Positions 9,163 through 16,004 of a stretch of 16,506 nucleotides of DNA are shown here, piece after piece. The position numbers were made by a program, and so were the translations under genes. Origin of the DNA: a virus (lineage: Duplodnaviria > Heunggongvirae > Uroviricota > Caudoviricetes); IMG/VR virus record IMGVR_UViG_2728369593_000027, positions 1 to 16,506 of that record; one strand, 5' to 3'. The notes under the pieces were generated by a model, which ran no database searches, was not told where the DNA came from, and worked only from the letters and a program-made list of their open reading frames with translations. The stretch's first letter is position 1; each line of letters begins with the position of its first letter.

Positions 9163-10021
9163 GCGGATGGTGCAGGCCTGAAATTATGATACTAACAATG
9201 AAGGTAAAATGCATCGGCAGTCTGATTGGTCGTAGTGAGGCGGCGGTCAGGATGAAAGCCCGGGTTAAGGGAATAAGCCTGATTCTGCGGGGTAATTTTC
9301 ACCAGTCAACAAAATATCCGTAGCGCGATAACGGTCAAAAATCATGGCGCTGACACTTTTGTGCCACTGTAGATGACTGTACCTAAGTTCAGGGGAGAAG
9401 AACACGTCCGGTGGGATGGTCGGGCCAGATTTAAAGGGCAGGTCATGGCTCCAGCCAGTACGCTGGCAATGGAGGCTGCCTGGCTGGAAATTGATATGGG
9501 AACCACGCCACTCAGGGATTTACTGCCGGTCCAGAGAATAAATTCCTGTTACGGTTACACCACTGTGATCTTGCAAGTGCAGGAAAGTAGGTCTACACGG
9601 TAACGCGAGTGCGTGTAACTTTTGATGTTATTTCCGTAGAAACACCGGACAAATTTTCGCTGGCAGGTCATGCTGAAGGTATAAATCTGCAGATTATGGA
9701 CAATTACGGATATCCGGCAAGAGCCGGAAAAAGCATGCCGCCTCTAATTCTCAGTGGAAGATGGACTTGATTATACTCATTGCATTGTCAGAAATAGTTA
9801 TCCATTAAAGGCTGGCTATTCCAAACAGGATGTTGATTACAAAAATGTAATCAACATGTAAGGTTTATACTCTTCAATATGCGTATAATTTTCCTTATTT
9901 TGTTAACTTTAAATAACAAGCTATGCACGAGGTAAAGTCGGATAAGTTTATCTGGATGTAATATATATTATTTGTAGTGTTTATAACTTTATTTCATGAT
10001 AACCAATAAAAGGAGTTTTTT

Positions 10022-10780
10022 ATGAGGAACATAATGGCAGGTTTTTTAATATTCCTGTCTTCTGCTGCTTATGCTGATATCAATCTGTATGGTCCTGGTG
10101 GCCCGCATACAGCCTTGCTTGATGCAGCCAAACTTTATGCCGAAAAAACAGGTATTATAGTGAACGTTCATTACGGCCCACAGAACAAATGGAATGAAGA
10201 TGCCAAAAAAAATGCAGATATCTTGTTTGGCGCATCAGAACAATCTGCTCTGGCTATCATTCGGGACCATAAAGACAGCTTCAGTGAAAAAGATATTCAG
10301 CCTCTTTATCTGCGAAAAAGTATTTTACTGGTAAAGAAAGGTAATCCTAAAAATATCCGGAGTATTGACGACCTGACCAGACCCGGGATTGGCGTAATTG
10401 TTAATGATGGTGGTGGTACCAGTAATACATCAGGCACTGGCGTCTGGGAAGATATTGCCGGACGTAAAGGGAATATAGAAACTGTCGCCGCAATCCGAAA
10501 AAATATTATTTTATATGCGCCCAATAGCGGAACTGCACGTAAGGCTCTTGAGAATCAGCCTGAAGCAGATGTCTGGATAACCTGGGCTGACTGGGCAGCC
10601 AGTAATCCAGAAATTGGTGATGTCGTGGAAATAGCGCCAGACTACGTGATATGGCGTGATATGAACATTACAGTACGTCAGGATGCAAATGATGAAACCC
10701 GTCGATTTGCAGAATGGCTACAAACCGATGAAGCGGCGCCTGCATTCAAAAAATATGGCTGGACCAGGAAAGGCACTTGA
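10022..10780 (+). CDS. Orphan periplasmic solute-binding protein (ModA/PBP2-like) with signal peptide
   Basis: 252-aa ORF, ATG at 10022 with AGGAG 6 nt upstream. N-terminus MRNIMAGFLIFLSSAAYA has a signal-peptide pattern. C-terminal ...FAEWLQTDEAAPAFKKYGW resembles ModA-type binding proteins. No permease or ATPase gene adjacent; AT-rich upstream region. Confidence 0.75.
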   Translation: MRNIMAGFLIFLSSAAYADINLYGPGGPHTALLDAAKLYAEKTGIIVNVHYGPQNKWNEDAKKNADILFGASEQSALAIIRDHKDSFSEKDIQPLYLRKSILLVKKGNPKNIRSIDDLTRPGIGVIVNDGGGTSNTSGTGVWEDIAGRKGNIETVAAIRKNIILYAPNSGTARKALENQPEADVWITWADWAASNPEIGDVVEIAPDYVIWRDMNITVRQDANDETRRFAEWLQTDEAAPAFKKYGWTRKGT

Positions 10781-11118
10781 CATCCTCCACGTCCTTCAGA
10801 ACGTGGATTCTTTTTCCGGATGCCGCGCCAGCGGCATGTAGGGGCAGCTCACAAAACGGAAAAAATTGTACGCTAAGCCTCGCCAGGTGAACTGAATTCA
10901 TTCCGATATGGGAATTCCCATATCGGACGAAAACGGCTTGCTGTAACGGCAGAGTTAAGTAGAATTGCTGCGGGTGCTTGAGGCTATCTGCCTCGGGCAT
11001 GAACACCAACGGCAGATAGATAAAAGCCCCACCCGACTATAAATCGAAGTGAGGCCCCTATATGCTCGTCACATATAGATTGCCTCTTACGGACCGAAAG
11101 GTCAAGGAGAAGCAGGCT

Positions 11119-11274
11119 ATGAAGCAGCAAAAGGCGATGTTAATCGCCCTGATCGTCATCTGTTTAACCGTCATAGTGACGGCACTGGTAACGAGGAAAG
11201 ACCTCTGCGAGGTACGAATCCGAACCGGCCAGACGGAGGTCGCTGTCTTCACAGCTTACGAATCTGAGGAGTAA
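11119..11274 (+). CDS. hok: Hok/Gef-family type I toxin (51 aa)
   Basis: ATG at 11119 with AGGAG 9 nt upstream. Translation MKQQKAMLIALIVICLTVIVTALVTRKDLCEVRIRTGQTEVAVFTAYESEE is a typical Hok (single transmembrane helix, conserved Cys, RIRTGQTEVAVF). An in-frame upstream ATG at 11062 would add 19 residues. Confidence 0.85.
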   Translation: MKQQKAMLIALIVICLTVIVTALVTRKDLCEVRIRTGQTEVAVFTAYESEE

Positions 11275-11342
11275 GAGACCCGGCGGGGGAGAAATCCCTC
11301 GCCACCTCTGATGTGTCAGGCATTCTCAACGCACCCGCATTT

Positions 11343-11369
11343 AACCCGCTTCGGCGGGTTTTTGTTTTT
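11343..11369 (+). terminator. Rho-independent terminator downstream of hok
   Basis: Stem CCCGC (11345-11349), loop TTCG, stem GCGGG (11354-11358), then TTTTTGTTTTT. Confidence 0.6.
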
Positions 11370-11494
11370 ATTTTCAACGCGTTTGAAGTTCTGGGCGGTG
11401 CCGGAATAGAATCAAAAATACTTAAGTAGCGCGCAGGGATAAGAGGGATGGACCCCGAACAGGGGAGTGCTATTTATCTGGAAGGATTCTGTTG

Positions 11495-15754: not shown

Positions 15755-15830
15755 GGCCCTTTAGCTCAGTGGTGAGAGCGAGCGACTCATAATCGCCAGG
15801 TCGCTGGTTCAAATCCAGCAAGGGCCACCA
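15755..15830 (+). tRNA. ileZ: tRNA with CAU anticodon, ileX-like (tRNA-Ile2; Met not excluded)
   Basis: Hand-folded cloverleaf: acceptor GGCCCTT/AAGGGCC, D-arm GCTC-AGTGGTGA-GAGC, anticodon loop CUCAUAA, T-arm GCTGG-TTCAAAT-CCAGC, discriminator A, encoded CCA. Very similar to E. coli ileX as remembered. Confidence 0.8.
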
Positions 15831-15837
15831 TCACATA

Positions 15838-15914
15838 CCGCCATTAGCTCATCAGGAAAGAGCGCCAGCTTTCGAAGCTGGTTGCGCGGAGTTCGGGTCC
15901 CCGAAGGCGGTCCA
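15838..15914 (+). tRNA. argN: tRNA-Arg-like, anticodon UCG as folded (argN-like); imperfect stems
   Basis: Hand-folded: acceptor CCGCCAT/AAGGCGG with one A-A mismatch; anticodon arm CCAGC-TTTCGAA-GCTGG; T-arm CGGAG-TTCGGGT-CCCCG with one A-C mismatch; encoded CCA. Begins 7 nt after the previous tRNA. Confidence 0.65.
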
Positions 15915-15927
15915 TTATCTGTATCCT

Positions 15928-16004
15928 GCGTTGTTAGCTCAGCCGGACAGAGCAATTGCCTTCTAAGCAATCGGTCACTGGTTCGAATCCAGTACAACGC
16001 GCCA
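15928..16004 (+). tRNA. argO: tRNA-Arg (anticodon UCU, reads AGA/AGG), argO-like
   Basis: Hand-folded: acceptor GCGTTGT/ACAACGC, D-arm GCTC...GAGC, anticodon arm ATTGC-CTTCTAA-GCAAT, T-arm ACTGG-TTCGAAT-CCAGT, discriminator G, encoded CCA. Confidence 0.85.

Follow-up and report, generated by a model that had tools for sequence, protein, structure and literature searches.

A probable hok/mok/sok type I toxin-antitoxin cassette in a Qin-like Escherichia coli prophage and a palindrome related to KilA-N genes upstream of it

[quoted passage not shown] The mok and hok frames occur in two known layouts. In plasmid R1, mok is out of frame with hok, and the same out-of-frame layout is seen in K-12 mokB/hokB, where the stop codons of the two frames are 40 nt apart. 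In the second layout, which is the standard one for the hokD/hokW/hokC group, mok is in frame with hok. For example, mokC (210 nt) and hokC (153 nt; also named gef) of K-12 have a common stop codon and are related by a 19-codon in-frame extension, and mokW (213 nt) and hokW (156 nt) of the Stx2 phage 933W likewise share a stop codon and a 19-codon in-frame extension. A model of hok regulation based on the tac/fbi and ucb/dcb elements has been summarised (PMC9841398). [quoted passage not shown]

We analysed a 16,506-nt stretch of a caudoviricete virus record (IMG/VR identifier IMGVR_UViG_2728369593_000027), referred to here in its entirety as the window. Its positions 10930-11369 very probably form a complete type I toxin-antitoxin cassette (hok/mok/sok) that belongs to the hokD/hokW/hokC group, is carried as cargo of a Qin-like prophage after the gene paa and would work by the established hok model. 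The parts of this cassette, their positions, their computed folds and their homology to annotated loci were obtained directly. The kind of locus is already known, viz., a conventional hok/mok/sok cassette. The original prediction, made from the sequence alone, was correct in recognizing a hok gene that does not lie behind relBE and that has a structured leader and an in-frame upstream start, but the features that made the locus appear unusual do not hold.

The hok toxin ORF (11119..11274, plus strand), present as predicted, encodes a protein of 51 aa (MKQQKAMLIALIVICLTVIVTALVTRKDLCEVRIRTGQTEVAVFTAYESEE) and is preceded by a Shine-Dalgarno (SD) sequence, AAGGAG, at 11104-11109 on the same strand. 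The protein matches the Pfam family HOK_GEF (PF01848) with 82.9 bits, against a cut-off of 22, and covers the full profile (positions 1-42). RefSeq gives it the name 'type I toxin-antitoxin system toxin HokD' in genomes that are identical or nearly so. The window Hok is identical to HokW except for four C-terminal residues, and differs at 1/51 residues from HokD of the K-12 Qin prophage.

The gene upstream of hok is paa, an adhesin gene of the AcfC family (window 10022-10780), which was assigned from the annotation of genomes with 99-100% identity to the 590-nt stretch. A terminator-like hairpin with a T-rich tail, found by a terminator scan (10786..10815, plus strand), lies 3' of the paa stop codon (10780); it folds weakly (-9.6 kcal/mol, z = -1.35) and is part of the context, outside the hok cassette. 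The window also carries DicF (4541-4592), and DUF968, RusA and tRNA genes are found downstream, and the cassette is cargo of a Qin-like lambdoid E. coli prophage located directly 3' of paa. The hokW cassette of 933W, which is also present in the Sakai prophage Sp5, is prophage cargo as well, although it is situated near the right end of the 933W genome whereas the window cassette lies between the replication and nin-like modules.

The absence of relBE, noted in the original prediction as a departure from K-12, was confirmed. K-12 Qin does carry relB-relE-hokD, with hokD (relF) as part of the relBEF operon, whereas the window locus follows paa and has its own promoter, mok and sok. The two loci have the same 3' UTR, fbi box and terminator, and the same prophage position upstream of a rem-like ORF and DUF968/ydfU. 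However, the homology between them begins only at ~11104, just upstream of the hok SD, and everything 5' of this SD in K-12, i.e., the promoter, tac, mok and sok, is replaced by the 3' end of relE. As homology stops at the relE 3' end, the window holds the intact form of the cassette and hokD of K-12 is a truncated derivative.

The ATG at 11062, 19 codons ahead of hok, was correctly predicted to open a 70-aa ORF in frame with hok (11062..11274, plus strand). Its in-frame position had been taken to distinguish it from mok, but the very same layout is annotated as mok at both mokC/hokC and mokW/hokW. The N-terminal extension, MLVTYRLPLTDRKVKEKQA, aligns with those of MokC (MLNTCRVPLTDRKVKEKRA) and MokW in support of the assignment from the ORF list, and a SD sequence, GAGG, is present at 11051-11054, 7 nt 5' of the ATG. 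We therefore consider 11062 to be the mok start. The window thus has an overlapping upstream frame with its own SD, for which translational coupling to hok is predicted. As in the window, the 933W locus has a 70-codon in-frame mok and a 51-codon hok, though residues 8-14 of the Mok extension differ between the two. K-12 hokC likewise has an in-frame mok that extends hok by 19 codons, though MokC begins MLNTCRVPLTDRKVKEKRA and the window Mok begins MLVTYRLPLTDRKVKEKQA.

An alternative reading is that the locus is an unconventional hok that lacks Sok, is controlled through a palindrome-rich leader of ~280 nt and makes a 70-aa extended toxin in place of mok coupling. The in-frame ATG and three inverted repeats on which this rests are real, and a simple promoter scan does not list an antisense promoter. 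Nevertheless, this reading is highly improbable. A scan of the whole window against Rfam at gathering thresholds found the sok family, RF01794, at 10972-11121 on the plus strand over the entire model (positions 1-157) with 103.9 bits and E = 4e-23, well above the gathering score of 59. The consensus of RF01794 begins GGGUGCUUGAGG and ends at the hok AUG, hence the model represents the hok leader in the sense orientation. Loci with an annotated Sok served as a control for orientation: hokC, hokW and hokB match on the hok strand with 118, 114 and 110 bits, respectively, and the annotated sokC, sokW and sokB are each nested antisense within the RF01794 match of their own locus. While hokB/mokB/sokB belongs to the same Rfam family, its mok is out of frame, unlike that of the window. 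The original prediction, which stated that no sok could be identified, had held that an Rfam sok match in the leader accompanied by a standard out-of-frame mok would make this a conventional locus; the match was found and speaks against the prediction, while the mok is of the in-frame rather than the out-of-frame form.

The predicted Sok RNA itself was located by positional homology and fold (11020..11070, minus strand, ~49-55 nt). In alignments of the window with the K-12 hokC and 933W hokW loci, the annotated 5' ends of sokC and sokW both fall on window base 11070, and their 3' ends on 11016 and 11022, respectively. The predicted Sok begins with 9-12 single-stranded nt (the 5' tail, GACGAGCAUAUA), after which comes one GC-rich hairpin ending in UUUU; it is antisense to the first three codons of mok, to the mok SD and to the stretch 5' of this SD. 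It folds at -21.1 kcal/mol and shares its design with sokC and sokW; a longer stretch of 63 nt (11008-11070) folds with z = -4.59. At 71 nt, sokW is longer than the window Sok of ~51 nt and its hairpin is longer by ~21 nt. The putative Sok promoter (11077..11105, minus strand), identified from the sequence and from alignment with sokC and sokW, consists of TTGACC (-35, 11105-11100), a 17-nt spacer and CAATCT (-10, 11082-11077), and the predicted start at 11070 is 7 nt downstream of the -10 hexamer. The aligned promoter of sokC is TTGACC-17-CACTCT, that is, with the same -35 and spacer, and that of sokW has TTGCCT/TAACCT. Thus, the window has a predicted antisense RNA over the mok initiation region, with its own promoter and terminator hairpin, and the Sok gene can be identified from its promoter, its fold and the corresponding positions of two annotated Sok RNAs. 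Two independently annotated Sok RNAs on the same bases, a -35 kept at the same spacing and a common tail-plus-terminator-hairpin design are difficult to reconcile with a hok that has no Sok, as are the Rfam match and the in-frame layout annotated as mok in K-12 and 933W.

A scan for consensus promoters with a 9/12 threshold listed neither the hok nor the Sok promoter. Both fall below this threshold and were consequently located via alignment to the annotated loci; in the case of Sok, the weak -10 is the reason why the promoter was missed by the scan as well as in the original prediction. Measured against consensus, both the -10 of Sok (CAATCT) and the -35 of hok (TTGCTG) are weak. The putative hok promoter (10938..10965, plus strand), found by sequence and homology, comprises TTGCTG (-35, 10938-10943), a 16-nt spacer and TAGAAT (-10, 10960-10965), which amounts to an 8/12 match to consensus. 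It aligns with the hokW promoter of 933W and, from the -10 onward, with that of K-12 hokC. By homology, transcription likely starts at 10972, 6 nt downstream of the -10, in agreement with the start of the Rfam model. The leader then measures 147 nt as far as the hok AUG (90 nt as far as the mok AUG), half of the about 280 nt of structured leader that had been proposed. The full-length hok mRNA would thus extend over ~394 nt (10972..11365, plus strand), from the 5' end GGGUGCUUGAGG to the intrinsic terminator at its 3' end. This terminator, AACCCGCTTCGGCGGGTT followed by a T-run (11343..11369, plus strand), was detected both as an inverted repeat and by the terminator scan, which places the hairpin at 11343-11360.

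The predicted mRNA (10972 to ~11366) has a minimum free energy (MFE) of -161.7 kcal/mol with z = -6.75, and 0/100 shuffled sequences are as stable. In the MFE structure of the full-length mRNA, nt 1-12 are paired with nt 353-365, i.e., the tac (translational activator) box at 10972..10983 is paired with the fbi (fold-back inhibitory) box UCUCAACGCACCC at 11324..11336 (both plus strand), which is the fold-back expected of a hok mRNA. The fbi box is kept in K-12 hokD and in 933W. The tac/fbi pairing recurs in four other intact cassettes, viz., those of 933W, L026, L034 and the divergent L055. The two boxes are invariant across the compared cassettes, which are too similar for a test of covariation, and the fold-back is hence supported by conservation and thermodynamics rather than by covariation. 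In hokW/mokW/sokW, the promoter, tac, the leader hairpins and fbi are all the same as in the window. K-12 hokC, on the other hand, is chromosomal rather than prophage-borne and has ~80% nucleotide identity to the window; IS186 lies directly downstream and its 3' region does not align with the window fbi box.

Three hairpins on the plus strand make up the predicted leader structure. The 5' leader hairpin (10973..11030) contains the 9-bp inverted repeat CTATCTGCC...GGCAGATAG (arms at 10984-10992 and 11011-11019) and corresponds to the first helix of RF01794. The next hairpin (11026..11055), which is seen in the MFE structure, corresponds to the second RF01794 helix and is supported by the Sok fold, hides the mok SD (GAGG) against an upstream C-rich box that resembles ucb; its complement is the terminator hairpin of Sok. 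The third hairpin (11058..11078) is an inverted repeat, CTATATG (11058-11064)...CATATAG (11072-11078), which contains the mok AUG and is part of the third RF01794 helix. It is the region with which the 5' tail of Sok, whose 5' end maps to 11070, would pair. Both the 9-bp repeat and the CTATATG/CATATAG repeat are present where they had been predicted and, as helices 1 and 3 of the RF01794 consensus, these two of the three inverted repeats originally listed are conserved hairpins of hok leaders and not novelties. The leader as a whole matches RF01794 with 103.9 bits against 59.

The transcription, processing, toxicity and physiological role of the cassette would presumably follow the established hok model. 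The moderate promoter TTGCTG-16-TAGAAT would give rise to an mRNA of ~394 nt from 10972, in the full-length form of which the 5' tac would pair with the 3' fbi and the mok SD would be buried, so as to permit neither translation nor Sok binding. Slow trimming of the 3' end would strip off fbi, upon which the leader would refold and ribosomes could start at the mok AUG (11062). Translation of mok would in turn open the hok start (AUG at 11119) and, because mok is in frame here, it would also read through hok. The short and unstable Sok (minus strand, 11070 to ~11020) would pair with the mok start region and block mok translation, and the Sok-mRNA duplex would be marked for RNase III. When Sok synthesis stops or falls, on loss of the element or on induction of the prophage (the latter as demonstrated with hokW-sokW), the stable hok mRNA would be translated and Hok would then depolarise the inner membrane.

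A structurally intact cassette could nonetheless be a physiologically silent passenger remnant, like the chromosomal hok loci of K-12. As summarised in a preprint, native chromosomal hokA, hokB and hokC gave no post-segregational killing in earlier work (bioRxiv 10.1101/2025.08.07.668861), and hence activity in the host of the window prophage is not guaranteed. The weakness of both the hok and the Sok promoter, as judged by consensus, also fits with a silent locus. However, all parts of the window cassette are intact, with neither an IS element nor a frameshift. This contrasts with the decayed copy in phage vB_EcoS-673R7 (L008), which is frameshifted, has lost the fbi box and does not show the tac/fbi pairing. 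Moreover, L055 retains the non-coding tac and fbi boxes and their pairing even though its Hok sequence is quite different, and the close homologue hokW-sokW is active (PMC8621323). On balance, we consider a silent remnant to be unlikely, and favor a cassette that works by the hok model.

The whole 590 nt are present in ~715/5,426 complete E. coli genomes and the spacer between paa and hok in ~580 complete E. coli genomes, among them O157:H7 EDL933. The RefSeq annotation at this locus is confined to the hokD CDS, which leaves mok and Sok unannotated in hundreds of genomes of pathogenic E. coli, including O157:H7, O103, O111, O145 and O55. A working hok/sok next to paa, a virulence adhesin gene, could aid the retention of this region of the prophage. 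Alternatively, it could take part in lysis upon induction, as hokW-sokW has been shown to do.

Further upstream lies the largest of the inverted repeats, a perfect palindrome (10902..10927, no strand assigned; TCCGATATGGGAATTCCCATATCGGA), which the original prediction had described as 24 bp long and which an inverted-repeat search extends to 26 bp. The palindrome is real but had been wrongly placed in the hok leader: with the hok mRNA starting at 10972, it covers -70 to -45, ahead of the promoter and outside the transcript, which further weakens a Sok-less reading that depends on the leader. Its 24-mer occurs at a single place in the window, and 200 dinucleotide-preserving shuffles gave no match with up to three mismatches allowed, hence the palindrome is not attributed to chance. 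A permissive Rfam scan of 10700-11450 found nothing at the palindrome and returned only sub-threshold matches in the hok 3' UTR. We rejected a role as an intrinsic terminator, as a T-run follows on neither strand, and we also rejected the palindrome as a part of the hok cassette, as it is absent at hokW and occurs elsewhere without hok. The 933W cassette is homologous to the window only from ~10931 onward and, unlike the window, has no palindrome upstream. Conversely, in a prophage of O170:H18 the same 38 nt lie at the corresponding place in the map, adjacent to a different cargo and without hok.

The minus strand at 10933-10889 reads FSSDMGIPISE*IQF, and the window copy therefore looks like a ~45-nt fragment of a KilA-N gene. 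It has the exact consensus dyad with ~14 nt of KilA-N-like flank, and a stop codon follows, so that it does not lie inside an ORF. The palindrome is probably a free-standing copy, or a relic, of a dyad element that is otherwise located inside KilA-N genes. This element is defined here as a 20-26-bp sequence GATATGGG-NNNN-CCCATATC, or a compensated variant thereof, in the D-M-G-I-P-I-S frame of an ORF with a KilA-N domain. The 20-nt core, or a variant with one base changed at the centre, is found in >170 contigs of the viral collection, in three contexts. The first is upstream of hok: in 72 cassettes of the retrieved viral contigs, the tac box follows the core at a distance of exactly 47 nt. 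The second is the same lambdoid junction, with the core directly before a tR2-like terminator. The third is the inside of genes for KilA-N domain proteins (Pfam, 94.5 bits), where it encodes ...LSxDMGIPISELIQ.... An intact KilA-N gene is divergent from the hok cassette, and 528 nt away from it, in nine contigs. Derivation of the window layout by simple deletion from such a divergent KilA-N/hok pair as found in L008 (528 nt apart) is not supported, since the two hok promoter regions share similarity only from the -10 onward.

The fixed distance of 47 nt to the tac box in these 72 cassettes, an invariant core between variable flanks and the dyad-preserving covariation in the native KilA-N context would be expected if the palindrome were an operator or structural site acting on the hok promoter, which would make the cassette a regulated variant of hok/sok. 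Yet hokW is active without the palindrome, the same element is found without hok both at the same prophage junction and elsewhere, and the ~14 nt of additional KilA-N-like flank on the minus strand (FSSDMGIPISE*IQF) give the copy the appearance of a gene fragment. A regulatory site for hok is thus quite unlikely, and the conventional cassette described above is preferred.

With regard to the palindrome itself, it is possible, though we suggest this only tentatively, that it is a functional copy of a dyad-symmetric nucleic-acid element, apparently undescribed so far, which belongs natively to the KilA-N genes of many bacterial phyla. Searches of the literature for the motif sequence and for palindromes in KilA-N genes returned no description of such an element. 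Free-standing copies are found at a module junction that recurs among lambdoid phages, including the position 47 nt upstream of hok cassettes. If functional, the dyad could form a hairpin or serve as a binding site for a dimer, and might promote module exchange or regulate neighbours such as hok. A KilA-N dyad that is conserved across phyla and recurs at module junctions is a testable candidate for a regulatory or recombinogenic site; this by-product of the analysis may matter more than the hok finding, and poses a separate question on KilA-N genes and phage module junctions.

Within KilA-N genes, the nucleotide sequence of the dyad itself appears to be under constraint. A comparison of 32 distinct KilA-N genes, chosen by protein similarity, showed synonymous diversity to be lower at the motif than anywhere else in the gene: its heterozygosity is 0.10 against a mean of 0.42 and ranks last among 168 sliding windows. 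Two rare codons of the motif, CCC and ATA, are fixed, and in these 32 genes only the central Gly codon varies. A search of one genome per species (596 Gb) recovered the 20-mer 108 times, compared to an estimated chance expectation of ~2, and the occurrences span at least 9 phyla with a local GC of 0.32-0.72.

A second sample, of 45 distinct metagenomic KilA-N sequences retrieved via degenerate peptide patterns, allows covariation to be assessed. Here substitutions in the dyad come in pairs and change both of the encoded amino acids. The covariation score from pair counting is 0.215 versus 0.104 ± 0.012 for shuffles, and 0/500 shuffles reach this score, though the shuffle control ignores phylogeny. 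The cells with double changes number 38 against 14.9 expected. Such symmetric change would be expected of a dimer-binding DNA site no less than of a hairpin, and template switching between the arms of a repeat can homogenise them without selection (PMC8604942). The paired fraction is 82% for the structure and 34-50% for slid controls, and the variants DIGIPIS, DTGIPVS, ETGIPVS, VMGIPIT and VTGIPVT are each 10/10 palindromic.

The Rfam model RF01794, although named 'sok antitoxin', in fact represents the hok leader in the sense orientation, and the last of its 157 positions falls at the hok AUG. Sok itself, the antisense RNA, is the reverse complement of the middle third of the model. Since the model describes the sense leader, the strand of an RF01794 match is the hok strand and not the Sok strand, and this holds for the matches in the window (10972-11121) and in three comparison loci (L004 502-654, L010 1543-1717 and L005 567-718).

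Homology between the window cassette and K-12 hokD starts just 5' of the hok Shine-Dalgarno sequence (junction at window ~11104; positions 1775-1850 of L003, the K-12 relB-relE-hokD sequence). In K-12, the 3' end of relE takes the place of the promoter, tac box, mok and sok of the window, whereas the fbi box and terminator are retained as in the window. The K-12 hokD gene is therefore derived from this cassette by 5' truncation.

Codon 47 of the window hok is TAC followed by G (UACG, 11257-11260). According to a recent survey, A-to-I editing by TadA in hokB mRNA, and similarly in those of hokC, hokD and hokE, recodes a Tyr to a Cys that is required for a disulfide (bioRxiv 10.1101/2025.08.07.668861). 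A candidate TadA editing motif is present at window codon 47. The hok 3' UTR, comprising the fbi box and terminator (11283-11364, + strand), gave a sub-threshold match over the full model length to isrK, a Salmonella prophage sRNA family. The match scored 25.8 bits (E = 0.002), where the family's gathering score is 50, and this resemblance could reflect either chance or distant relatedness. We also note an unannotated hok cassette in the record of phage vB_EcoS-673R7 (ON470616.1; L008 2561-2950), in which the hok ORF is frameshifted and the fbi box is gone while the leader is still intact. The same record has an intact KilA-N gene, divergently oriented and 528 nt away from the cassette.

The palindrome at window 10902-10927 appears, by sequence, to be a member of a dyad element that is embedded in KilA-N domain genes of many phyla, with further copies at L008 2001-2033, at L006 3010-3040 and in L260-L367 and L368-L447. 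Within these genes the dyad encodes the peptide D-M-G-I-P-I-S, synonymous change is lowest at the dyad compared with the rest of the gene, and the symmetry is maintained through compensatory substitutions that alter both amino acids. In one-genome-per-species data the dyad occurs 108 times against about 2 expected. We found no prior description of this KilA-N element in the literature.

A one-base variant of the dyad, GATATGGGAATCCCCATATC, is recurrent in the arrangement ...TACCATACAAGC-dyad-GACAGCCAGGGCCTCTTCGGAGGCCTTTTT (L130 ~2150-2235, L172 ~6060-6160, L160 ~6290-6380 and about 15 more viral contigs). It is free-standing, immediately 5' of an intrinsic terminator, and is located at the left edge of the lambdoid phage module of small ORFs, RusA, DUF968 and Q, which is also the window's map position. 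In some genomes the 20-nt dyad core is central to far longer perfect palindromes of 44 bp and 38 bp in apparently non-coding DNA. Contigs of Saprospiraceae and Haliscomenobacter contain short related repeats, which point to a possible small repetitive element. These observations come from Patescibacteria (L294 ~7736-7779, L308 ~7658-7701) and from L320 and L344.

DicF sRNA (4541-4592, - strand, 76.7 bits), three clustered tRNA genes (15755-15827, 15838-15911 and 15928-16001, + strand), DUF968, RusA and replication genes show the window to be, as judged by gene content, a Qin-like lambdoid prophage. A frameshifted fimbrial-protein pseudogene is annotated by RefSeq just 5' of paa in the genome identical to the window (window ~9373-9861; L001 4593-5081), so the paa region has the appearance of a degraded adhesin/fimbrial cargo island within the prophage.
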